NCBI GenBank assembly: GCA_964628035.1
Contig: CAZVPI010000013.1
Location: 3,251 to 67,250 of the forward strand
Reading direction: 5' to 3'
Source of the DNA: an uncultured Clostridia bacterium
GTDB taxonomy: Bacteria > Acidobacteriota > Aminicenantia > UBA2199
Length of the DNA: 64,000 nt
The notes under the pieces were generated by a model. That model was not told where the DNA came from. It did not search any database and saw nothing but the letters and a program-made list of their open reading frames with translations. This document shows positions 3 to 64,000 of this stretch, one piece after another. Numbering within the stretch: position 1 is the stretch's first letter; every line of letters begins with the position of its first letter. Both the position numbers and the translations under genes were made by a program.

Positions 3-3000
3 ATGAAGAAAAGAGAAGCGGGCAAAGAGAAGAAGAAGTCATTGAAAAAAAAGGCAACTAAAGGGCAAAACAAAGCGGGCAAGGCAAGCGAGCCACTGCG
101 GGTGCTGATCCTGGAGGACAGCGCCGCCGACGCCGAGCTGATGGAGCGCCAACTGCGGCGGGAGAAGACCGCGTACAGGTTCCTGCGGGCCGAGACGCGC
201 GCCGGATTCCTGAAGGGGCTGAAGAAGTTCAAGCCCGCTCTCATCCTGGCCGACTACACCCTGCCCGGGTTCGACGCCGTGAGGGCCCTGGCACTCGCAA
301 GGAAGCAGGATCCCCTGCTTCCCTTCATCATCGTCACCGGCTCCATCGGCGAGGAAAAGGCGGTGGCCTGCCTGCGCGCCGGGGCCGACGACTATCTGCT
401 CAAGGATCGCCTTGGACGCCTCGGCGAGGCGATGCGCCAGGCCCTGGAGCGAAGCCGGCAGCGGGGTGAAAGTGCCGCCATGCAGGAAACGCTGGTTGCC
501 AGCGAAGAGCTGCTGCGCGCCTTCATCAACTCCAGCACCGACATGGCCTTCCTCAAGGACGCCCGCTTTCGCCTCCTCGTCGCCAACCAGGCCCTGTGCC
601 GCTTTTTCGGCCGGACGCAAGAAGAGATCCTGGGGCGCACCGACCACCAGTTGATGGAACCGAAGGCGGCCGCCCGCTGCCGCCGCTCCGACCGCCTAGC
701 CTTGAAGGAGGGCGGGATAGTCGTTCAGGAGGAGACGGTAGGCGGCCGCGTGTTCGAAACGCGCAAGTTCCCGGTGCAGTTGGCCGACGGCAGCCGCGGC
801 GTGGGCGCTTACATCCGCGACATTACCGAGAACAGGAAGCTGGAGGCGGCGATCCGCCAGCGCGCCGACGAATGGATCGCCACTTTCGATTCCATCCGCG
901 ATCCCATCGCCCTGTTTGACGCCAAGGGCACCGTGCATCGCTGCAACCGAGCGTTTGCTCTTCTGTCCGGAAAGCCCTTCAAGCAAATCATCGGCCGGCC
1001 TTGCCACCTGTTCGCCGCCGCCGCGGGCGCCTCCTGCCAGTTCCTGCGCCGGGCGCTGAAATCGCACCGCCCCCTGCGCGCCGAAGTGGAACTCGCCGGC
1101 CGCTGGTTCGAACTGGCGATCGATCCGCTGTCAGGAGCCGCAAACAAGTTCCAGGGGGTGGTGCTGGCAATGAAGGACGTCAGCGAGCGCAGGCGGACCG
1201 AGGACGAGCGGTGCCGGCTTTCGCTGGCCGTCGAGCAGAGTCCTACAGCGGTGATCATCACCGATCCGGAAGGCCGGATCGAGTTCGTCAATTCCAAGTT
1301 CTCTGAGCTTACCGGTTACGCTCCGGCCGAAGTTCTGGGAAAGAACCCGCGGCTGCTCAAGTCGGGAGATACTCCGGCCGGCGAATACCGACGGCTATGG
1401 CGGACGATCCGCCGCGGAGGCACCTGGCGCGGCGAGTTCCACAATCGCCGCAAGGACGGCTCTCTGTATTGGGAGCGGGTTGCGATCTCCCCGGTTCTGG
1501 ACGGCCGGGGGCGGATCAACCATTACGTGGCTGTCAAGGAGGACGTCACCCAGCAGAAGCGAACCAACGATTCCCTGCGCGAGAGCGAGAACCGCTTCGC
1601 CGCCTTCTTCCGCTCCAATCCCGGCCCCATCGCCATCACCCGCCTGGACGACCACCGCATCCTCGACGTCAACGAGGCCTGGCAGAACGTCACCGGCTAC
1701 AGCCGCGACGAGGCCATCGGCCGCACGCCGACCGAGCTCGCGCTGTGGCCCGAGCCGGCGGCGCGCCAGCGCATAGTCGACGCCGTGCGTGCCGGCGCAT
1801 CCGTCCACAACTTGGAGATCAACATCCAGCGCAAAGACGGCGAAACACGGCGAATCCTGATGTCGGCCGACCGCATCGTCGTCGGCGGCAGCGCCTGCAT
1901 GATCACCATGGCCCTGGACATCAGCCAGCGCAAGCGCGCCGAGGACTCCCTGCGCGAGATGAACGAGATCTTCCGCCAGTTCCTCAGATACAACCCCCTA
2001 TACGTCTTTATCAAGGACGAGAACATCCGCTCCGTCTTCCTGAGCGACAACTACGAGCGCATGCTCGGACGCCCCCTTACCGAGATCATCGGAAAAACGA
2101 TGGACGAGTTGTTTCCCTCCGCGCTTTCGCGCCAGATGATCGAGGACGACAAGGGCATCCTGCGCGACGGCGCGGTGCGCGAGTTCCAGGAGGAGCTGCA
2201 CGGGCGGATCTATTCCACCATCAAGTTCCCGATCATCATCGACGGCAAGGCCAAGTACCTGGCCGGCTACACCATGGACATCACCGAGCGCACGCGCGCC
2301 GAGGATCTGCTGCGCGAGCGCGACCAGCTGCTGCAGAACCTGTCGGCCCAGATCCCGGGCATGATCTACACCTTCCTGCGCCGGCCCGACGGCAGCTACG
2401 CGCTCCCCTACTGCTCGAACATCATCCGCGAGATCTTCGGCATCGCCCCCCAGGACGTGTGCGAGGACGCCACACCGATCTTCGCCGCCATTTACCCCGA
2501 GGACCTCCCGGGAACCGTGTCTTCCATCGAGAAGTCGGCGCGGGACATGTCTCTCTGGCAGCACGAGTTCCGCGTCCAGGCCCCCGGCCAGCCGCCGAGC
2601 TGGATATGGGCGCGCTCCCAGCCTTTCCACTTGGCCGACGGTTCCATACTCTGGTACGGATTCATCGCCGACATCACCGAGCGCAAGCAGGCCGAGGAGC
2701 GTCTGGCCGCCTCGCTGAAGGAGAAGGAGATTCTGCTCAAGGAGATCCATCACCGGGTCAAGAACAACCTGCAGGTCATTTCCGGCCTGCTGACGCTGCA
2801 GGCGGGGCAAACCGATGACCCACGCCTGGCGCGCCTGGTCCAGGAGAGCCAGTCGCGAATCTGGACCATGGCCCTGATCCACCAGACCCTGTACCAGTCG
2901 GGCGACCTGGCGGCCATCGAGATGGCCGAGTATGTCCGCACGCTCGCCGGCAACCTGATCAGTTCCCAGGCCCGGGTGGCCATGCCCCCCTCCTGCCGCT

Positions 3001-3359
3001 GCGACGTGGAGCCGCTGCGCCTGCCCATCGACCAGGCCATCCCCCTGGCGCTGATCATCAACGAGCTCCTGACCAACGCCCTGAAGCACGCCTTTCCCGA
3101 CGGACGGCCAGGCGAGATCCGTATCCGCCTGCGCTCCCTGCTGCCCCCGGATGCCGGTCAGTGCGAGCTGATCGTCGCCGACGACGGCGTCGGCCTGCCC
3201 ACGGGCTTCGATCCCGGCGAGCAGAAGCACCTGGGCCTGCTGCTGATCGCCATGCTAGCCAGGCAGATCCGCGGCACCCTGGCCTGCGAGCAGGACAACG
3301 GCGCCCGCTTCCGCATCCGCTTCCCGCTCCAGGAAAGAAATGGAGAGCACCATGGTTGA
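3..3359 (+). CDS. Hybrid signal-transduction protein: N-terminal receiver (REC), about six tandem PAS domains, HisKA_2-type histidine kinase core plus HATPase_c. The 5' end touches the window edge.
   Basis: REC motif LRVLILEDSAADAEL...LILADYTLPG...IIVTG. Repeated PAS blocks with D..GR....N patterns. H-box EIHHRVKNNLQVISGLLTLQ is typical of HisKA_2. ATP-lid motifs (DDGVGLP...G.GL) follow. The ATG at 3 may not be the true start. Confidence 0.85.
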   Translation: MKKREAGKEKKKSLKKKATKGQNKAGKASEPLRVLILEDSAADAELMERQLRREKTAYRFLRAETRAGFLKGLKKFKPALILADYTLPGFDAVRALALARKQDPLLPFIIVTGSIGEEKAVACLRAGADDYLLKDRLGRLGEAMRQALERSRQRGESAAMQETLVASEELLRAFINSSTDMAFLKDARFRLLVANQALCRFFGRTQEEILGRTDHQLMEPKAAARCRRSDRLALKEGGIVVQEETVGGRVFETRKFPVQLADGSRGVGAYIRDITENRKLEAAIRQRADEWIATFDSIRDPIALFDAKGTVHRCNRAFALLSGKPFKQIIGRPCHLFAAAAGASCQFLRRALKSHRPLRAEVELAGRWFELAIDPLSGAANKFQGVVLAMKDVSERRRTEDERCRLSLAVEQSPTAVIITDPEGRIEFVNSKFSELTGYAPAEVLGKNPRLLKSGDTPAGEYRRLWRTIRRGGTWRGEFHNRRKDGSLYWERVAISPVLDGRGRINHYVAVKEDVTQQKRTNDSLRESENRFAAFFRSNPGPIAITRLDDHRILDVNEAWQNVTGYSRDEAIGRTPTELALWPEPAARQRIVDAVRAGASVHNLEINIQRKDGETRRILMSADRIVVGGSACMITMALDISQRKRAEDSLREMNEIFRQFLRYNPLYVFIKDENIRSVFLSDNYERMLGRPLTEIIGKTMDELFPSALSRQMIEDDKGILRDGAVREFQEELHGRIYSTIKFPIIIDGKAKYLAGYTMDITERTRAEDLLRERDQLLQNLSAQIPGMIYTFLRRPDGSYALPYCSNIIREIFGIAPQDVCEDATPIFAAIYPEDLPGTVSSIEKSARDMSLWQHEFRVQAPGQPPSWIWARSQPFHLADGSILWYGFIADITERKQAEERLAASLKEKEILLKEIHHRVKNNLQVISGLLTLQAGQTDDPRLARLVQESQSRIWTMALIHQTLYQSGDLAAIEMAEYVRTLAGNLISSQARVAMPPSCRCDVEPLRLPIDQAIPLALIINELLTNALKHAFPDGRPGEIRIRLRSLLPPDAGQCELIVADDGVGLPTGFDPGEQKHLGLLLIAMLARQIRGTLACEQDNGARFRIRFPLQERNGEHHG

Positions 3360-50767: not shown

Positions 50768-50797
50768 TTGACATTGGGAAATCTCTTGCGGTAGAAT
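50768..50797 (+). promoter_or_regulatory. Sigma-70 promoter TTGACA -N18- TAGAAT; predicted transcription start is within about 10 nt of the downstream ATG (near-leaderless).
   Basis: TTGACA at 50768-50773, TAGAAT at 50792-50797. The first in-frame ATG outside the -10 element is at 50814. Confidence 0.45.
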
Positions 50798-50813
50798 GGA
50801 TGGCGAAGCGAAC

Positions 50814-51569
50814 ATGGACCTATTGAAGAAGTTCATCAGCAAGTACGCCGCCGGCGACGTCATCTACAAGCAGGGCGACATGCAGAGCGACTTCTTCATC
50901 ATCAACAAGGGCAAGGTGCAGCTGAAGCACGACGGCCAGGGCCAGATCCTGGCCACCCTCAGCAAGGGCGACTTCTTCGGCGAAGAATCGCTCAACAGCG
51001 AACAGACCGCCATCTACACCGTCGAGGCCGTCGAGGAAAGCTTCCTCATCAAGATCCCCTATACCTCCCTGACCGACATGCTCAAGCAGACGCCCGACAT
51101 CGCCCTCAAGATCCTCAAGAAACTGAGCGAAAAGCACATCAAGATCCAGACGGTCTTGATGTCGGCCGCCGCCGCGCCGGCGGCGAAGGAAAAAGGGGCC
51201 GGCAAGGAACCGCGCCGCGAGGACTCGACCTCGGAGAAGATCGGCGGCGAGGTCAAGGCCTACCTGATCATCCAGCGCTCCAACCGCCTGGTGCAGCTGA
51301 CCAAGACACAGACCTTCCTGGGCCGCCGCGACTACACCACAGGCTTTGTCCCCGATATCGACCTTACCGACGAGGACGAGGAAAAATACATCTCGCGCAA
51401 GCACGCCAAGATCCAGTTCCGCGACGGCAAGTTCTACCTCTCCGAGGAGCCGGGCGCCATCAACGGCACCTTCCTCAACGGCAACAAGCTGCAGACCGGG
51501 GTCAAGCACGAACTGAAGGCCGAGGACGAGATCACCCTCTGCCACCTGAACATCATCTTCAAGGTCTGA
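50814..51569 (+). CDS. Cyclic-nucleotide-binding domain protein with a C-terminal FHA domain.
   Basis: cNMP-binding fold (GDVIYKQGDMQSDFFIINKGKV...GDFFGEESL). FHA core (ISRKHAKIQFRDGKFYLSE...GAINGTFLNGNKL). The track start at 50796 lies inside the promoter -10 element. Confidence 0.75.
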   Translation: MDLLKKFISKYAAGDVIYKQGDMQSDFFIINKGKVQLKHDGQGQILATLSKGDFFGEESLNSEQTAIYTVEAVEESFLIKIPYTSLTDMLKQTPDIALKILKKLSEKHIKIQTVLMSAAAAPAAKEKGAGKEPRREDSTSEKIGGEVKAYLIIQRSNRLVQLTKTQTFLGRRDYTTGFVPDIDLTDEDEEKYISRKHAKIQFRDGKFYLSEEPGAINGTFLNGNKLQTGVKHELKAEDEITLCHLNIIFKV

Positions 51570-58788: not shown

Positions 58789-59130
58789 ATGAACCAACTG
58801 CTTTGGGCGGAAAGCGTGGATGTGGCCATGACCGTCTGCGACCGCGAGGGGATCGTCCTGTACATGAATGACAGGGCCGCGGCCGCCTTCGCCCCCGAGG
58901 GGGGCAAGGCTCTGGTGGGGACATGCCTGATGCCCTGCCACCCCGAGCCGGCGCGGCGCAGGATCCAGGAGATCCTGGCCACGCGGCGGGCCAACACCTA
59001 CACCATCGAGAAGAACGGGGTGAGGAAGCTCATCCACCAGGCGCCCTGGTTCGAGAACGGCGAGCTGGGCGGGCTGGTGGAGTTTTCCATCGTCCTGCCC
59101 GCGGAGATGCCGCATTACAAAAGGACCTAG
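58789..59130 (+). CDS. Small single-domain PAS protein (113 aa) with a conserved Cys-His-Pro motif; paralog of 16093..16497.
   Basis: AMTVCDREGIVLYMNDRAAAAF...CLMPCHPEPA...GGLVEFSIVL aligns with the 16093 protein. Its stop TAG (59128-59130) is the first unit of the heptamer array. Confidence 0.65.
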   Translation: MNQLLWAESVDVAMTVCDREGIVLYMNDRAAAAFAPEGGKALVGTCLMPCHPEPARRRIQEILATRRANTYTIEKNGVRKLIHQAPWFENGELGGLVEFSIVLPAEMPHYKRT

Positions 59131-59366
59131 ACGTTAGACGTCAGACGTTAGCAGGAAACTCAATGAGATCAGACGTTAGACGTCAGACGTTAGCAGGAAA
59201 AAGCCCTTTAAGAGAACTCGGGTGAAAGATCTGAGGCGCTGGCTGAGGACGACGGATGCCGGAAAACAAACATCCGACATCAGTCGCCAGACGTCAGACG
59301 TTAGCCGGAAACGAAATGAGATCAGACGTTAGACGCTAGACGTTAGACGTTAGTGGATAGCAAGAA
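59128..59366 (+). repeat. Heptamer (AGACGTY)n tandem arrays organised as a higher-order repeat: two identical 30-mers AGACGTTAGACGTCAGACGTTAGCAGGAAA (59129-59158, 59171-59200) plus arrays at 59289-59312 and 59324-59366.
   Basis: Direct reading of 59121-59370. Each array is followed by an AGCMGGAAA(C) A-rich motif and/or AATGAGATC. Confidence 0.8.
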
Positions 59367-59373
59367 GCATATC

Positions 59374-59709
59374 TGTCCAAAATAACTTCAAACCTGGGAA
59401 GACTGAAGCACCAAGTTCCAAGCACCAAATTCCAAACAAGCACCAAGCCCCAATGACCCAATGACCAAAACAAAGGCCATATAGGTTCAAGTTCTATACA
59501 CCTAAAGTGCGTTTTGGCCTCCTTTTGGGTCACAACGTCCCCGCCAGGGGATTGGAATTTGGAACTTGGAATTTTTTTGGGATTTGATGCTTGGTGCTTG
59601 GAATGTTAGTCTTACCAGCATCAGACCTCGCCGCAAAAAATACTGTGGCTAGCCCCGAAACCCTTTACAGTGCTAGTTGTCTGTCAAAAAGGCAATTTAT
59701 TTTGGACAG
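59374..59709. repeat. About 336-bp low-GC segment bounded by a perfect 13-bp inverted repeat (CTGTCCAAAATAA / TTATTTTGGACAG); contains long imperfect inverted repeats (59409-59438 vs 59553-59608) and a hairpin at 59681-59709. MITE-like or structured-RNA-like.
   Basis: The words TTCCAAGCACCAA / TTGGTGCTTGGAA and the AATGACCCAATGACCAAA direct repeat are visible in the sequence. GC content is far below flanking DNA. Confidence 0.5.
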
Positions 59710-59768
59710 CAATGAGCAAGAAGAATCCCTTAGGAGCTTGAATTGCCCTTTTTCTTGCTAACGTCTGA

Positions 59769-59954
59769 CTACTTCTTTTTGATCGTTGAGATCTTGAACG
59801 GCACGTACAGCGGGCAAAAGCCGAGCAGGGCCGTGACCAGCGGGATCAGCGCGAAAAGCCCCCACCAGGTCTGGAAATAGATGCCCAGGGCGATGCCGGC
59901 GAGGCCGATGACGCCCCGGACGATGCGGTCCGTACTTCCCATGTTGCGCTTCAT
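59769..59954 (-). CDS. DUF2892-like small inner-membrane protein (61 aa), embedded in the repeat island.
   Basis: MKRNMGSTDRIVRGVIGLAGIALGIYFQTWWGLFALIPLVTALLGFCPLY resembles the YgaP-associated DUF2892 fold. Its stop TAG is followed directly by TCAGACGTTAGCAAGAAAAAG. Confidence 0.55.
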   Translation of the reverse strand: MKRNMGSTDRIVRGVIGLAGIALGIYFQTWWGLFALIPLVTALLGFCPLYVPFKISTIKKK

Positions 59955-60043: not shown

Positions 60044-60080
60044 TTCTTGCTAATGTCTAACGTCTAACGTCTACCGTCTG
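60044..60080 (-). repeat. Inverted (minus-strand) heptamer array AGACGGT AGACGTT AGACGTT AGACATT AGCAAGAAAAAAA that includes the stop codon of the Ser/Thr kinase gene.
   Basis: Reverse complement of 60044-60080. The last codons TCA GAC GGT AGA CGT TAG of the kinase are built from the repeat. Confidence 0.75.
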
Positions 60081-63000
60081 AGTTCGGATAGAGCTTGTCC
60101 AGCTCGGCCGCGATCTCGGCCAGCGTCGGCCTCTTCGCCGGATCCTTGTCGATCATGGCCGCGATCAACGCCTCCAGCGCCGGCGGCGTCTCCGGGTTGA
60201 TCTCCCGCGCCGGCACCGGGTAGGTCTCGAGGATGCGGTGGATCACCTCGCCGGTCGCCTCGGACCAGAACGGCTTGGCCGCGGTCAGCATCTCGTAGAG
60301 GATGATGCCGGCCGAATAGATGTCGCCGGCGACCGACGAGACGCCCCGCTGGATGCGCTCGGGAGGCAGGTAGCGGACGGTGCCCATGACCACTCCCGAC
60401 ATCGTCAGCCGCGACTGGGCAGGGGTGATGGCCAGTCCGAAGTCGAGGAGCTTGACGAGCGGCCGGCCGCCGCCGCCGTCCAGAACCATGATGTTTTCGG
60501 GCTTCAGGTCGCGGTGCAGGATCTCCCGGCCGTGGATGGCCTTCAGGGCCTCTACGACCTGGCGCATGACCACGACGGCCTCCTGCGGCCGGAAGCGCCC
60601 GCGCTCGCGTATGAGGCGGGCCAGCGTGGCGCCCGACAGCAGCTCCATGGCGATGTAGAAGCAGTCGTCGCTCTCGCCGCGCTCGAAGACGCGCACGATG
60701 TGCGGGTGGTCCAGGCCGGCGGTGATCTGCGACTCGTGGCGGAAGCGGCGCTTCTGGGCCTCGTCGTGGAAATTCTCCTCCTTCAGCAGCTTGAGGGCCA
60801 CCACCCGTTTCTCGCCCAGCAGGTCCTGGGCCTTGTAGACCGTGGCCATGCCGCCGCTGCCGATCGTTTCCAGGATCTTGTAGTGGCCGACCTGCGTCTT
60901 CTTTTTCCAGAATTTCACGGCGCGCAGGTATTTCCGCAGCAGCTGCCAGGAGAAGGCCGACAGCGCGGCGAAGGCCAGGGCGGCCAGGGAGAGGAACCAC
61001 CAGGTCTGGTGAACGAAGGGCCGCAGGACGAAGAGGAACTCGGCGCCGGACCGGTTCCACACGCCGTCGGCGTTGGCGGCGATGACGCGGAAGCGGTAGC
61101 GGCCGGGCCGCAGGTCGTTGTAGAAGGCCTGGCGCCGGTTGCCGGCGTCGACCCAGTCCCGTTCATAGCCCTCCAGCTTGTAGCGGAAGACGATCTTGTC
61201 GGAGCGGACGAGGCTCAGGGCGGTGTAGGCGAACTCGAGCTTGCGGCGGCCGGCAGGAAGCGAACAGGGGCCGGCCGCGCCGGCGCCCGGCAGGGGCAGG
61301 CTGCGGCCGTCGGCCAGGGCCCGCTCGATGCGCACCGCCGGCACGCGCCCATTGCGGCGGATGCGGGCGGGATCGATGCCGGCCACGCCGGCGAGGTTGG
61401 CGAACCACAACCTCCCCTGCTCGTCGCGCCAGCCGGCCGGGTCGCCGTAGTTGCAGATCCGGCTGGCCATGCCGTCGGTCTCGTCAAAAAGGCGGCCGCT
61501 CACCCTGGGTCTGCGGCCGAAAGCCGCCGCCTCAAGATCGCCGGCCGCGACGCGGAACAGGCCGCGCTCGCTGCTCAGCCACAAGTGGCCCAGGCCGTCG
61601 GCGAGGATGGCGTAGATCCGGCTGTCGAACAGCCCCTGCCCGGCCGACACCGAACCCCAGCGGCCCTGGCGGAGGACCTTGATCCCCTGATGCGTGCCGA
61701 TCCAGAGGCCGCCTCCGCCATCATCGAAAAAAGACGTCACATGACAACCGGCAAGGAAGGGCTCGGCGACGAACCGGGCCCCGGGCCCGGGCGCCATCAC
61801 CGCCATGCCGTTCTCGCAACCGGCCCAGATGCCGCCGCCGGGGCCGGCGTGCAGCGCCGAGACGAAGTTCCCGGGCAGACCGTCGGCCGCGGAGTAGGCG
61901 GTGACGTTTCCGCCGCTCAGGCAGTGCACGCCCATGCCCCAGGTGCCGATCCACAGCCTTCCCTGCCGGTCGCTGGCGAGGCAGCGCACCTCGACATCGT
62001 GGGCGACGCCGGGAAGCCCCCGCCGCTCGACGCGCCCGCGGCGCAGGCGCATCAGTCCCGCGGAGGTTCCCAGCCACAGCGCGCCGCCGGGGCCGGCCTC
62101 CAGGGCGTAGACCGCGTGGTCGCGGTCCGCCCCCGGCAGCCGCAGCCCGTCGCAGCGCCCGCCGCGGATCCGGTTCAGGGTCCCGCCGCTGCCGCCCACC
62201 CAGAGCATCCCGTTCCCGTCGCCATGGAGGCAGCGGAACTTGTTGCCGACCAATCCTTCGCGGTCGGTGAAGGAGGTGATCTTCTCGTCGCGGATCTGGA
62301 TCAATCCCCCGTCCAGGGCCCCCACCCACAGCGAGCCCTCGGCGTCCTCGCACAGGGCGTACACCCAGTCGCTCCCCAGCCCCCGGTTTTTGCCGATGGC
62401 CTGCCAGTCGCTCCGGTTCCAGCGGTACAGCCCGCTTTCGCTGCCCACCCAAAGGTTGCCGTCGCGGTCCTCGACCAGCGAAGTAACCAGGGAGCGGAAA
62501 CCTCCCGGAGGCGCGATCTCCTGCCAGCTTCCTTCGCGGGTGCGGGCCAGCCCGTCCTCACAGCCCAGCCACAGCCAGCCGTCACGGCCGGGGAGGATGG
62601 CATAGATGTCGCCGCCCTTCAGCCCGGAGGCGGGCAGGACGCGGTTCCATTCGTCGCCTTCCAGCCGCAACAGCCCATCCCCGGCCACACTGGCCAGGAG
62701 CCGACCGGAGCGGTCCTTGGCCAGGGTCAGAATCGCAGCGCCGCCCAAGCCGGGATCCCGGGCCAGCTCGCCGCCAGCGCCGGCAAGGCGGCGGAAGAGC
62801 CCGGCCGAGGTCCCGACCCAAAGATCTCCGCGGCCGTCCTCGGTGATGCAGGAGAACGAGATGCGCGAAACCTCCGGGGCAAGCGCATGCGAGCGAAAGA
62901 CGCCCTGCTCCAGGCTGAGCAGCTTTCCGCGCATGGTGCCGATCCAGAGGACACCGCGGCGGTCGAAGTAGAGGTTGCCGACAAGATTGTCCTGGAAAAC

Positions 63001-63258
63001 GGGAGTGTTGCCGCTGTGGAAAATGTCGAAGTTCGCCCCGTCGAAGCGCACCAGCCCCTCGGCCGTGCCCAGCCACAGGAAGCCGGAACGGTCCTGGGCG
63101 ATCGCCATGACCGAGCTGTTGGGCAGTCCCCTCTCGCTCTTCCAGACGTTGACGGCGTACTGGGTGATCCTTTTTTCGGGATCCAGCCCTGCCAGCGTCC
63201 CCGCCTGCAGCAGCAGCCAGGCAAGAGCCAGCGCCGGGACCGCCCCGTTCCGCCTCAT
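60064..63258 (-). CDS. Transmembrane Ser/Thr protein kinase with a large periplasmic sensor region made of Reg_prop (two-component regulator propeller) repeats and a Y_Y_Y domain.
   Basis: Signal peptide. At least ten W.GT..GL-type propeller repeats. Y_Y_Y segment FRYKLEGYERDWVDAGNRRQAFYNDLRPGRYRFRVIAANADGVW. TM helix WWFLSLAALAFAALSAFSW. Hanks kinase subdomains GSGGMATVYKA, ALKLL, HRDLKPENIM, DFGLA, GTVRYLPPE. Confidence 0.85.
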   Translation of the reverse strand: MRRNGAVPALALAWLLLQAGTLAGLDPEKRITQYAVNVWKSERGLPNSSVMAIAQDRSGFLWLGTAEGLVRFDGANFDIFHSGNTPVFQDNLVGNLYFDRRGVLWIGTMRGKLLSLEQGVFRSHALAPEVSRISFSCITEDGRGDLWVGTSAGLFRRLAGAGGELARDPGLGGAAILTLAKDRSGRLLASVAGDGLLRLEGDEWNRVLPASGLKGGDIYAILPGRDGWLWLGCEDGLARTREGSWQEIAPPGGFRSLVTSLVEDRDGNLWVGSESGLYRWNRSDWQAIGKNRGLGSDWVYALCEDAEGSLWVGALDGGLIQIRDEKITSFTDREGLVGNKFRCLHGDGNGMLWVGGSGGTLNRIRGGRCDGLRLPGADRDHAVYALEAGPGGALWLGTSAGLMRLRRGRVERRGLPGVAHDVEVRCLASDRQGRLWIGTWGMGVHCLSGGNVTAYSAADGLPGNFVSALHAGPGGGIWAGCENGMAVMAPGPGARFVAEPFLAGCHVTSFFDDGGGGLWIGTHQGIKVLRQGRWGSVSAGQGLFDSRIYAILADGLGHLWLSSERGLFRVAAGDLEAAAFGRRPRVSGRLFDETDGMASRICNYGDPAGWRDEQGRLWFANLAGVAGIDPARIRRNGRVPAVRIERALADGRSLPLPGAGAAGPCSLPAGRRKLEFAYTALSLVRSDKIVFRYKLEGYERDWVDAGNRRQAFYNDLRPGRYRFRVIAANADGVWNRSGAEFLFVLRPFVHQTWWFLSLAALAFAALSAFSWQLLRKYLRAVKFWKKKTQVGHYKILETIGSGGMATVYKAQDLLGEKRVVALKLLKEENFHDEAQKRRFRHESQITAGLDHPHIVRVFERGESDDCFYIAMELLSGATLARLIRERGRFRPQEAVVVMRQVVEALKAIHGREILHRDLKPENIMVLDGGGGRPLVKLLDFGLAITPAQSRLTMSGVVMGTVRYLPPERIQRGVSSVAGDIYSAGIILYEMLTAAKPFWSEATGEVIHRILETYPVPAREINPETPPALEALIAAMIDKDPAKRPTLAEIAAELDKLYPNSDGRR

Positions 63259-63271
63259 GGCAGGCGATGCC

Positions 63272-63469
63272 TTACATGGCCGGGATCGTGGAACGGCAGA
63301 CCCTCAGCTCGAGCATGCCCTCCTCGCCGGCGAAGATCTTCTCCAGCCTGGCCAGGGCCCGGGAGGCTTCGGCGTACTTCTTGCCCTTGCGCTTCTCCGC
63401 TGGAACGGAATCGAGATAGGCGCGCATCTTGGCCAGGAGCAGATTGACATTGGCTTTCTTGATATCCAT
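63272..63469 (-). CDS. Small hypothetical protein (65 aa) just upstream of, and probably co-transcribed with, the Ser/Thr kinase.
   Basis: GAGGAGG RBS. 13-nt gap to the kinase start. No recognisable domain. Confidence 0.4.
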   Translation of the reverse strand: MDIKKANVNLLLAKMRAYLDSVPAEKRKGKKYAEASRALARLEKIFAGEEGMLELRVCRSTIPAM

Positions 63470-63578
63470 CCATTACCTCCTCGAACAGCATGTGCCCGAA
63501 TTGTACGCGAAAAGAAGAGCGAACTCAACGCGCGGCCCTCTTGCCCGCGGCGGCGTGGACGGCTACAATGGCGGCGGC

Positions 63579-64000
63579 ATGAACCGCCTCTCCTCCCTGT
63601 CCCTGGTCACGGGCACGGCCTGCAATTTTTCCTGCCCGTACTGCCTGCAGAGGCGGGACGCGAAGCGGCTGCGCTTCGCCGACATCGCGCGGTTCCTCGA
63701 CTGCCTGAAGCCGCACCTGGCCGACGAGGTCTGGCTGGGGTTCCACGGCGGCGAGCCCCTGCTGCAGTGGCCGCTGATCGAGCGCGTGACGCGGCACGCG
63801 GCCCGGGCCGGCGGCGTGCGCTTCCGCTTCGCCCTGACCAGCAACGGCTCGCGGCTCGGCCGCGAGCACATCCGCTTCTTCCGCCGGCACGGCTTCGACC
63901 TGGGGATCAGCTGCGACGGCCTGGCCCAGGCGCAGCGCGACGCCGGCAGCGTCGCTGCCGTCGAGAGGGCGCTGGAGGAGCTGCGCCGCCTTTATCCCGG
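63579..64000 (+). CDS. Radical SAM protein (anaerobic sulfatase-maturase / SPASM-like), 3'-truncated at the window edge.
   Basis: ATG at 63579. CxxxCxxC cluster GTACNFSCPYC. Downstream GGEPLL and TSNG motifs typical of the SPASM/AnSME subfamily. Confidence 0.7.
   Translation, partial: MNRLSSLSLVTGTACNFSCPYCLQRRDAKRLRFADIARFLDCLKPHLADEVWLGFHGGEPLLQWPLIERVTRHAARAGGVRFRFALTSNGSRLGREHIRFFRRHGFDLGISCDGLAQAQRDAGSVAAVERALEELRRLYP

Follow-up and report, generated by a model that had tools for sequence, protein, structure and literature searches.

A receptor Ser/Thr kinase with a Bacteroides-type Reg_prop/Y_Y_Y sensor, and its conserved small partner gene, in Aminicenantes

Sensors built of Reg_prop β-propellers and a Y_Y_Y domain are the best-understood glycan receptors of Bacteroides. 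In the hybrid two-component systems (HTCS) BT4663, which senses heparin, and BT3049 of Bacteroides thetaiotaomicron (structures 4a2l/4a2m and 3v9f), two seven-bladed propellers and Y_Y_Y are followed by one transmembrane (TM) helix and a HisKA-HATPase_c-REC-HTH_AraC output. PknD of Mycobacterium tuberculosis is a receptor Ser/Thr kinase (STK) with an extracellular NHL β-propeller, a single six-bladed one, located C-terminal to the kinase. Here we describe a gene that places a sensor of the former kind on an STK. It lies in a 64,000-nt stretch of DNA (the window, by which we mean that whole stretch: contig CAZVPI010000013.1, positions 3,251–67,250, of assembly GCA_964628035.1), filed as an uncultured Clostridia bacterium and assigned by GTDB to the Aminicenantia (Acidobacteriota). 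The product is a single-pass receptor STK of a diderm bacterium, with an HTCS-type sensor outside and a PknB-like kinase inside.

The receptor gene occupies positions 60064–63258 of the minus strand as an ATG-started open reading frame (ORF) of 1064 residues. The first-pass annotation, made from the letters of the window, had read this ORF as a Reg_prop/Y_Y_Y sensor with a single TM helix and a complete Hanks-type kinase lacking a histidine kinase core, and each part of that reading held. In Pfam, all three domains scored above their cutoffs: Reg_prop (PF07494) with 168.5 bits in 10 stretches against 20.4, Y_Y_Y (PF07495) with 48.5 bits at residues 686–743 against 26.6, and Pkinase (PF00069) with 185.6 bits at residues 793–1050 against 31.7. 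HisKA, HATPase_c, receiver (Response_reg) and HTH_AraC gave no Pfam match in the protein, even at E ≤ 1. The AlphaFold2 model, built with a 65-homologue alignment, had a predicted local distance difference test score (pLDDT) of 85.8 and comprised a signal helix, 14 four-stranded blades, an Ig-like sandwich, a TM helix and the kinase domain.

The protein begins with a signal sequence or anchor (residues 1–25, MRRNGAVPALALAWLLLQAGTLAG; 63184–63258), which coincides with a hydropathy peak at residues 7–25 and with a helix at 6–20 in the model. The first seven-bladed Reg_prop propeller covers residues ~35–330 (62269–63156) and superposes on BT4663; the second, also backed by a fold match, covers residues ~331–630 (61369–62268). 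The blades are marked by 14 motifs of the form LW[IVL]G[TS], at residues 61, 104, 146, 187 (degenerate), 229, 269 and 310 of the first propeller and at 352, 394, 435, 477, 518, 559 and 617 of the second. The membrane-proximal Y_Y_Y domain, whose β-sandwich strands appear in the model, spans residues 641–745 (61024–61338). It is followed by the TM helix (residues 753–779; 60922–61002), a Lys/Arg-rich juxtamembrane linker of ~15 residues and the Hanks-type STK domain (residues 793–1050; 60109–60882), all on the same strand. Hydropathy gave only two hydrophobic segments, at residues ~7–25 and ~755–775. The stretch RKYLRAVKFWKKK stands directly after the second of these, which places the kinase in the cytoplasm and the propellers outside it. 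The identical 1064-residue protein was found on 22 contigs from NCBI, Joint Genome Institute (JGI), European Nucleotide Archive (ENA) and Logan assemblies; since these are four independent data sources, misassembly does not account for the fusion. The window was searched for another kinase or Reg_prop paralogue, and none was found. The closest named relatives come from metagenome-assembled genomes (MAGs) of Candidatus Aminicenantes or Acidobacteriota.

The ectodomain is a bona fide HTCS-type, COG3292-like sensor of two seven-bladed Reg_prop propellers and Y_Y_Y. Residues 41–751 align in a single stretch to residues 36–786 of the BT4663 periplasmic domain 4a2l (phmmer against PDB sequences, E 1.6e-42), with a sequence identity of ~21%. 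When the model was compared with the PDB by Foldseek, the BT4663 and BT3049 sensors matched with E 1e-46 and root-mean-square deviations (rmsd) of 3.6–4.0 Å; the template modelling score (TMt) was 0.83 for 4a2l, with 3.6 Å over ~745 residues, and 0.82 for 3v9f. A generic WD40 or PQQ propeller was considered and rejected on these grounds, the full ectodomain aligning to BT4663 both by sequence and by predicted fold. The first-pass annotation's call of true Reg_prop repeats thus stands after the domain search and structure prediction. Both proteins have one TM helix after the sensor, and the scissor-closing transmembrane mechanism is, by analogy, probably common to them. Nevertheless, the receptor does not belong to the HTCS family, as the defining histidine kinase, REC and AraC modules are absent and a Hanks STK stands in their place. 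The gene also lies outside any polysaccharide utilisation locus, unlike those of the two Bacteroides systems.

Outside the kinase-bearing proteins, the nearest relatives of the ectodomain carry HisKA/HATPase, HisKA_3 or GGDEF outputs at 36–40% identity, a finding that fits the module swap suggested at first pass. The Reg_prop/Y_Y_Y sensor has been found with histidine kinase, HisKA_3, GGDEF and GerE outputs. The last of these is represented by BguR, a one-component regulator with the sensor on a GerE DNA-binding output (bioRxiv 10.64898/2026.01.10.698779). BguR, described in a 2026 preprint, shows that the sensor can drive an output outside two-component signalling and underlines its character as a promiscuous module. 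The present receptor shares the sensor-TM chassis with all these proteins and differs in its predicted output, Ser/Thr phosphorylation.

The kinase domain was inspected in an alignment (A1) of 65 same-architecture homologues. Invariant throughout were G800 and G802 of the Gly-rich loop, K823, E842, H915-R916-D917, K919, N922, D939-F940-G941, T952, T960 and P966-E967. BLASTP against the PknB kinase domain gave 34% identity, and the quality of the alignment supports the PknB sequence used. In that alignment, T952 and S954 lie opposite T171 and T173, the sites at which PknB autophosphorylates on activation; T952 is invariant and S954 at least 90% conserved in the 65 homologues. Around the counterparts of R10, L33 and D76, residues of the N-lobe dimer interface of PknB, the local alignment is ambiguous. 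The C-terminal part of the model matched PknB structures with TMt up to 0.91 (Foldseek). The activation loop (residues 942–959) was the sole low-confidence, disordered part of the kinase in the model, as expected for a loop that is unphosphorylated. Judged from its sequence, the domain is a catalytically complete PknB-like RD kinase that keeps both phospho-acceptor positions of the activation loop.

In NCBIfam, only the kinase domain was recognised, and always below the equivalog cutoffs. The best match was the Stk1/PknB PASTA-kinase model NF033483, with 282.4 bits against a cutoff of 450 and coverage of profile positions 7–267 of 563. The PknD model PRK13184 matched the kinase portion alone (124 bits, cutoff 839). 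PASTA domains were absent from the receptor in both Pfam and NCBIfam. With a score below the NF033483 cutoff and no PASTA repeats, the receptor is not a PASTA kinase. PknB, PrkC and StkP nonetheless have the closest kinase domains and share the RD type and the conserved counterparts of T171 and T173; the receptor is probably activated as they are, through dimerisation and trans-autophosphorylation. Their topology is the opposite one: the receptor has its sensor N-terminal and its kinase C-terminal. Both PknD and the present protein are bacterial receptor STKs with an extracytoplasmic β-propeller sensor; they differ in that here two seven-bladed Reg_prop propellers and Y_Y_Y precede the kinase, and the propeller families are unrelated. 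The type-I topology, the reverse of that in PknB, PknD and PrkC, arises because the topology of the sensor itself was kept. Eukaryotic type-I receptor kinases, such as plant receptor-like kinases (RLKs) and transforming growth factor (TGF)-β receptors, have the same series of signal peptide, ligand-binding ectodomain, one TM helix, short juxtamembrane segment and C-terminal kinase. This is an analogy only: the kinase belongs with the PknB-like enzymes of bacteria, and the ectodomain is a sensor of the bacterial two-component kind.

The fusion is real yet fairly common in environmental bacteria, with no characterised member. A word-indexed search returned ~60 clusters (at the 90% identity level) that carry the same four Pfam domains at 54–82% identity; the named ones come from MAGs of Candidatus Aminicenantes or Acidobacteriota, a few being labelled Chrysiogenales. 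The MAGs with the latter label (P0018, P0046, P0301 and P0350) carry the same cassette of kinase and small upstream ORF as the Aminicenantes MAGs, and the label of these bins is probably a taxonomic mislabel. Further members were found at 32–38% identity, including versions of 1270–1310 residues with a pre-kinase linker of ~250 residues, for example in a Nannocystaceae MAG. Next, 1.84 billion representatives at 50% identity were searched exhaustively with phmmer, and hmmsearch was applied to the 148 best with a kinase hidden Markov model (HMM) derived from A1. A kinase domain was present in 70 of the 148 including the query, and always C-terminal to the sensor. The 69 remaining when the query is set aside are a lower bound, as the best 148 alone were scanned, and the fraction is biased upward, the query itself having a kinase. 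One of the 69 (P0254; 2573 residues) has six kinase domains in tandem, in a layout that is probably unrelated, and two Reg_prop receptors (P0138 and P0205) have two kinase domains each. By the start of the kinase (residues ~760–870, 860–915 or 960–1080), the kinase-bearing representatives fall into three linker classes. Among the listed matches in species-representative genomes, most of which concern the ectodomain only, Pfam-confirmed full-length members occurred in MAGs labelled Aminicenantes, Myxococcota and ‘uncultured Clostridia’, a taxonomic range that is a lower bound.

The first-pass annotation had overestimated the rarity of the architecture, which belongs to a sizeable family (at least 69 clusters among the best 148). 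As to whether that family is already well annotated, it has only generic automatic names: ‘two-component regulator propeller domain-containing protein’ or ‘protein kinase’ at NCBI, and ‘ligand-binding sensor domain-containing protein/...Bud32’ at JGI. In full, the last element reads ‘tRNA A-37 threonylcarbamoyl transferase component Bud32’, a wrong name for what is a Hanks kinase domain. A full-text literature search gave no paper describing the combination of Reg_prop/Y_Y_Y with a protein kinase, nor relevant work on protein kinases of Aminicenantes. A 2005 survey of prokaryotic STK architectures lists WD40, PQQ and CHASE2 among the partners, and Reg_prop is not among them. In a rough neighbour-joining tree of ectodomains, which has no support values and serves as a hint only, the long-linker kinases were nested among GGDEF and histidine kinase sensors, and the short-linker ones formed separate groups, a pattern suggestive of two or more independent fusions. 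The family probably arose when a Reg_prop/Y_Y_Y sensor had its output, HisKA/HATPase or else GGDEF, replaced by a Hanks kinase, and this more than once. That bacteria swap the outputs of a common sensor module is a known principle of their signalling, and metagenomes contain many members of the family, so that a specialist would not be surprised by it.

Upstream of the kinase and on the same strand lies a 65-residue ORF (63272–63469), the stop of which is 13 nt before the kinase ATG. A Shine–Dalgarno (SD) sequence, GGAGG (63480–63476), stands 6 nt before its own ATG and is preceded by a promoter-like TTGAGT-17-TACAAT (63528–63500); the latter is a pattern match from a consensus scan, and the whole element covers 63476–63528. 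No SD sequence was present in the 13 nt before the kinase ATG, and no terminator-like site between the two genes. A profile search returned 158 homologous clusters of 60–114 residues; none has a Pfam domain, and all the named ones come from the MAG lineages that carry kinase orthologues. In the alignment of the small protein (A5), conservation is high over the first 47 residues (MDIKKANVNLLLGK...EAEKALAKLE..F), and the last ~15 vary except for one invariant residue, Cys58. The AlphaFold2 model shows a helical hairpin (residues 3–21 and 30–47) with a disordered tail. The small protein gave no significant fold match (best E 4.8) and no Pfam or NCBIfam family.

We also recovered 33 metagenomic loci through the small-protein profile and scanned them with our own HMMs, counting as testable the loci that extend far enough. 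A Reg_prop ectodomain followed the small ORF in all 27 testable loci, and a radical S-adenosylmethionine (radical SAM) gene preceded it divergently in 32 of 32. On a 1.03-Mb Aminicenantes contig (ENA ERZ25039527 contig_5963; loci L011 and L012), the cassette is tandem: a 65-residue protein, a kinase of 1041 residues, a 67-residue protein and a kinase of 1040 residues, with just one radical SAM gene beside them. The two small proteins, each homologous to that of the window, represent different sequence subtypes, and these follow the clades of the kinases. The 65-residue ORF is thus a real, clade-restricted gene that is co-oriented and tandemly duplicated with the kinase. Its co-transcription with the kinase, regarded as probable at first pass, is supported by the promoter-like site and strong SD sequence upstream, by the lack of a terminator or separate SD sequence before the kinase, by the order kept in 27 of 27 testable loci and by duplication of the pair as a unit. 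We considered the small protein as a phospho-substrate with a conserved site and rejected this, as A5 has no conserved column of Ser or Thr; for the same reason it is more likely a regulator or adaptor than such a substrate.

The radical SAM gene is divergent (plus strand, 63578–64000) and is cut by the window end, so that only its 5′ part, with the motif CNFSCPYC, is seen. The full gene (L001:817–1929, minus strand) encodes this motif near the N-terminus and, by eye, a C-terminal Cys-rich region C..G....C followed by CX2CX5CX2C. The best partial NCBIfam matches are all peptide maturases (PapB with 79.5 bits against a cutoff of 340, then nif11, CcpM, HxsB, QhpD and SCIFF), all far below the cutoffs, and Pfam gave no SPASM domain. 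A 311-residue gene with no Pfam domain (L012:1012–1947, minus strand) was considered as a replacement of the radical SAM gene. This was rejected, since at 52% identity it is the orthologue itself, with a start placed too far downstream and the CxxxCxxC motif lost as a result.

Loci orthologous at 55–71% identity are syntenic with the window. Upstream they share a Fer4/CCG oxidoreductase, GerM, Amidase_3, a CsgG/LpoB-like lipoprotein and the divergent radical SAM gene. The core consists of the 65-residue ORF, the kinase and then a YgaP-like membrane protein of 61 residues and/or a PAS_4 protein of ~113 residues. Downstream follow an S9 peptidase (absent in the strain of the window), a hypothetical protein, an M23 peptidase, a B12-binding protein, a REC protein, valyl-tRNA synthetase (ValRS), BirA and a protein with cyclic nucleoside monophosphate (cNMP)-binding and FHA domains. 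The YgaP-like gene lies at 59769–59954 (minus strand; PF11127, 74.3 bits), a position kept in L005, L007 and L012. The small stand-alone PAS_4 protein, a recurrent neighbour of 113 residues, is encoded at 58789–59130 (plus strand; PF08448); in L006 its gene lies on the strand of the kinase and has a 4-nt overlap with the kinase stop, and in L007 and L012 it is again on the same strand as the kinase. The cNMP-binding/FHA protein (257 residues; 50796–51569, plus strand) is 8.5 kb from the kinase with housekeeping genes between, and is possibly a reader of phosphothreonine (pThr).

Distant members have other surroundings. Next to a kinase at 35% identity (P0073), a gene for an FHA protein with a σ54-activator (bacterial enhancer-binding protein, bEBP) module (L009:502–2289, plus strand) overlaps the kinase start by 4 nt, and the two likely form an output pair in which the STK acts on the FHA-bEBP protein. 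Another Reg_prop kinase (P0063) is back-to-back with a canonical HTCS of 1348 residues (L008:1844–5890, minus strand; Reg_prop, Y_Y_Y, HisKA, HATPase_c, REC and HTH_AraC); both output types of one sensor adjoin at this locus. The neighbours of the Nannocystaceae, Myxococcota and ‘Clostridia’ members have nothing in common.

Other observations concern the flanks of the receptor gene and the far end of the window. Two arrays of the heptamer ACGTCTR, at 59129–59350 (minus strand) and 60050–60079 (plus strand), flank the YgaP-like gene in opposite orientation, one of them overlapping the kinase stop codon; a 13-mer gave 11 matches where 0.05 were expected. The identical-strain contigs L001–L004 have these arrays too, L005 has a single match, and the other orthologous loci have none. 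Between the PAS_4 and YgaP-like genes, a non-coding stretch of ~640 nt with lower GC content (59131–59768) holds further heptamer arrays, of AAGCACC (59406–59453) and TTGGAAT (59552–59574). The window, this stretch included, gave no Rfam match. At 3–3359 (plus strand), the window also encodes a cytoplasmic sensor kinase of 1118 residues with a receiver, five PAS domains, HisKA_2 and HATPase_c.

As to how the receptor may work, in PknB and PknD the kinase domains meet and trans-autophosphorylate. A scissor-like closing of the dimer was proposed for histidine-kinase outputs of such sensors. For BT4663, Lowe et al. (2012, PNAS 109:7298) are reported to have described this closing of the sensor dimer. 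If the BT4663 model (Lowe et al. 2012, as cited in PMC8534201) applies, the receptor would form a dimer and a periplasmic ligand, by analogy most likely an oligosaccharide or other glycan fragment, would bind the propellers. The ligand would close the dimer in a scissor-like manner, bringing together the C-termini of the Y_Y_Y domains and hence the TM helices. The short linker could then let the kinase domains meet, trans-autophosphorylate at T952 and S954 and become active, as in PknB and PknD. The active kinase would phosphorylate cytoplasmic targets read by pThr-binding (FHA) proteins or other regulators, and the 65-residue hairpin protein may be its dedicated cytoplasmic partner, as regulator, adaptor or substrate. 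In the clade of the window, the candidate outputs or partners are this small protein, the PAS_4 protein and the cNMP/FHA protein; the FHA-σ54 gene overlapping P0073 is the sole direct hint of an output route. We consider it rather probable that the whole of this account holds, i.e., that an HTCS-type sensor has been re-wired to a Hanks kinase, with ligand-driven closing of a dimer and a kinase output.

Several points weigh against this account. The ligand class is not transferable from BT4663, as the identity is only ~21%. The conserved neighbourhood has a cell-envelope flavour (Amidase_3, GerM, the CsgG/LpoB-like lipoprotein and the M23 peptidase, with the dcw cluster 12 kb away) and holds no glycan-utilisation genes. 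Neither a PP2C phosphatase nor an FHA gene is adjacent to the kinase in the clade of the window, and distant members, whose neighbours differ from each other, offer no common output partner. The small protein, with no conserved Ser or Thr, is unlikely to be a substrate at a conserved site. We infer the ligand, dimer, phosphorylation and substrate steps alike, beyond what the anatomy gives. By analogy with the sensor family, the default ligand would be a glycan; the envelope-related surroundings would point instead to peptidoglycan-derived fragments.

This alternative can be carried further: the receptor may be a monitor of the cell envelope, detecting glycan fragments that stem from peptidoglycan or the envelope and controlling how the wall is remodelled, an analogue of the PASTA kinases with a different sensor. 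The envelope genes just listed are consistent with such a role, as are the dcw cluster with MraW and Mur ligases, 12–16 kb away in the window, and the PknB/Stk1 PASTA-kinase model being the best NCBIfam match of the kinase domain (282 bits). That score is, however, below the cutoff of 450 and no PASTA domain is present. Moreover, the synteny spans unrelated housekeeping genes (ValRS, BirA and ribonucleotide reductase, RNR), so that the proximity may be incidental, and members in other phyla have unrelated neighbours. We regard the envelope role as unlikely. A catalytically dead pseudokinase or a chimeric, misassembled ORF, considered because apparent fusions in metagenomic sequence may be artefacts, has no evidence in its favour and is effectively refuted, given the catalytic motifs intact and invariant across 65 homologues, the identical ORF on 22 contigs of independent assemblies, the same domain order in at least 69 clusters at 50% identity and phmmer alignments that are continuous across the TM junction.

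The conserved gene order allows a different reading of the ligand. The 65-residue protein could be a precursor resembling those of ribosomally synthesised and post-translationally modified peptides (RiPPs), modified by the divergent radical SAM enzyme, released and sensed by the propeller ectodomain of the adjacent kinase, in a manner similar to quorum sensing. The partial matches of the radical SAM protein, all to peptide maturases, and its CNFSCPYC and CX2CX5CX2C motifs would suit this, although these matches are far below curated cutoffs and Pfam found no SPASM. A conserved 47-residue N-terminus before a variable, disordered tail with one invariant Cys would likewise suit a precursor; on the other side, the peptide has no signal sequence, its single Cys is accompanied by no conserved acceptor residue, and the locus has no RiPP recognition element (RRE), leader protease or exporter. 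The order of radical SAM gene, small ORF and kinase is invariant (32/32 and 27/27 testable loci), one genome has two small-ORF/kinase pairs of distinct subtypes beside one radical SAM gene, and the CsgG/LpoB-like lipoprotein gene adjoins. Nevertheless, a whole region of ~15 kb is syntenic in the clade, which makes adjacency weak evidence; distant Reg_prop kinases have neither the small ORF nor the radical SAM gene, and the known Reg_prop sensors bind glycans, not peptides. We therefore hold a peptide signal to be a long shot. If it were true, paralogous peptide/receptor pairs would diversify by tandem duplication, and the system would be the equivalent, in bacteria, of peptide-RLK signalling in plants, with a new ligand class for Reg_prop sensors.

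The re-wired sensor kinase, as we prefer to read it, bears on more than one question. With the same sensor placed on an STK probably activated by dimerisation, through a linker of ~15 residues, the family would allow a clean test of whether the scissor mechanism is independent of the output. It is also a chassis for engineering sensors with Ser/Thr outputs, and an instance of the type-I, eukaryote-like topology of receptor kinases arising in bacteria through domain shuffling. The newest element, and the one most worth following up, is the clade-specific trio of the radical SAM gene, the 65-residue gene and the kinase; the uncharacterised partner and the peptide-maturase-like gene may lead to an accessory, or to a ligand, of a kind new among bacterial receptor kinases. 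Lastly, the family gives a handle on signalling in the Aminicenantes, an uncultured but globally abundant lineage.

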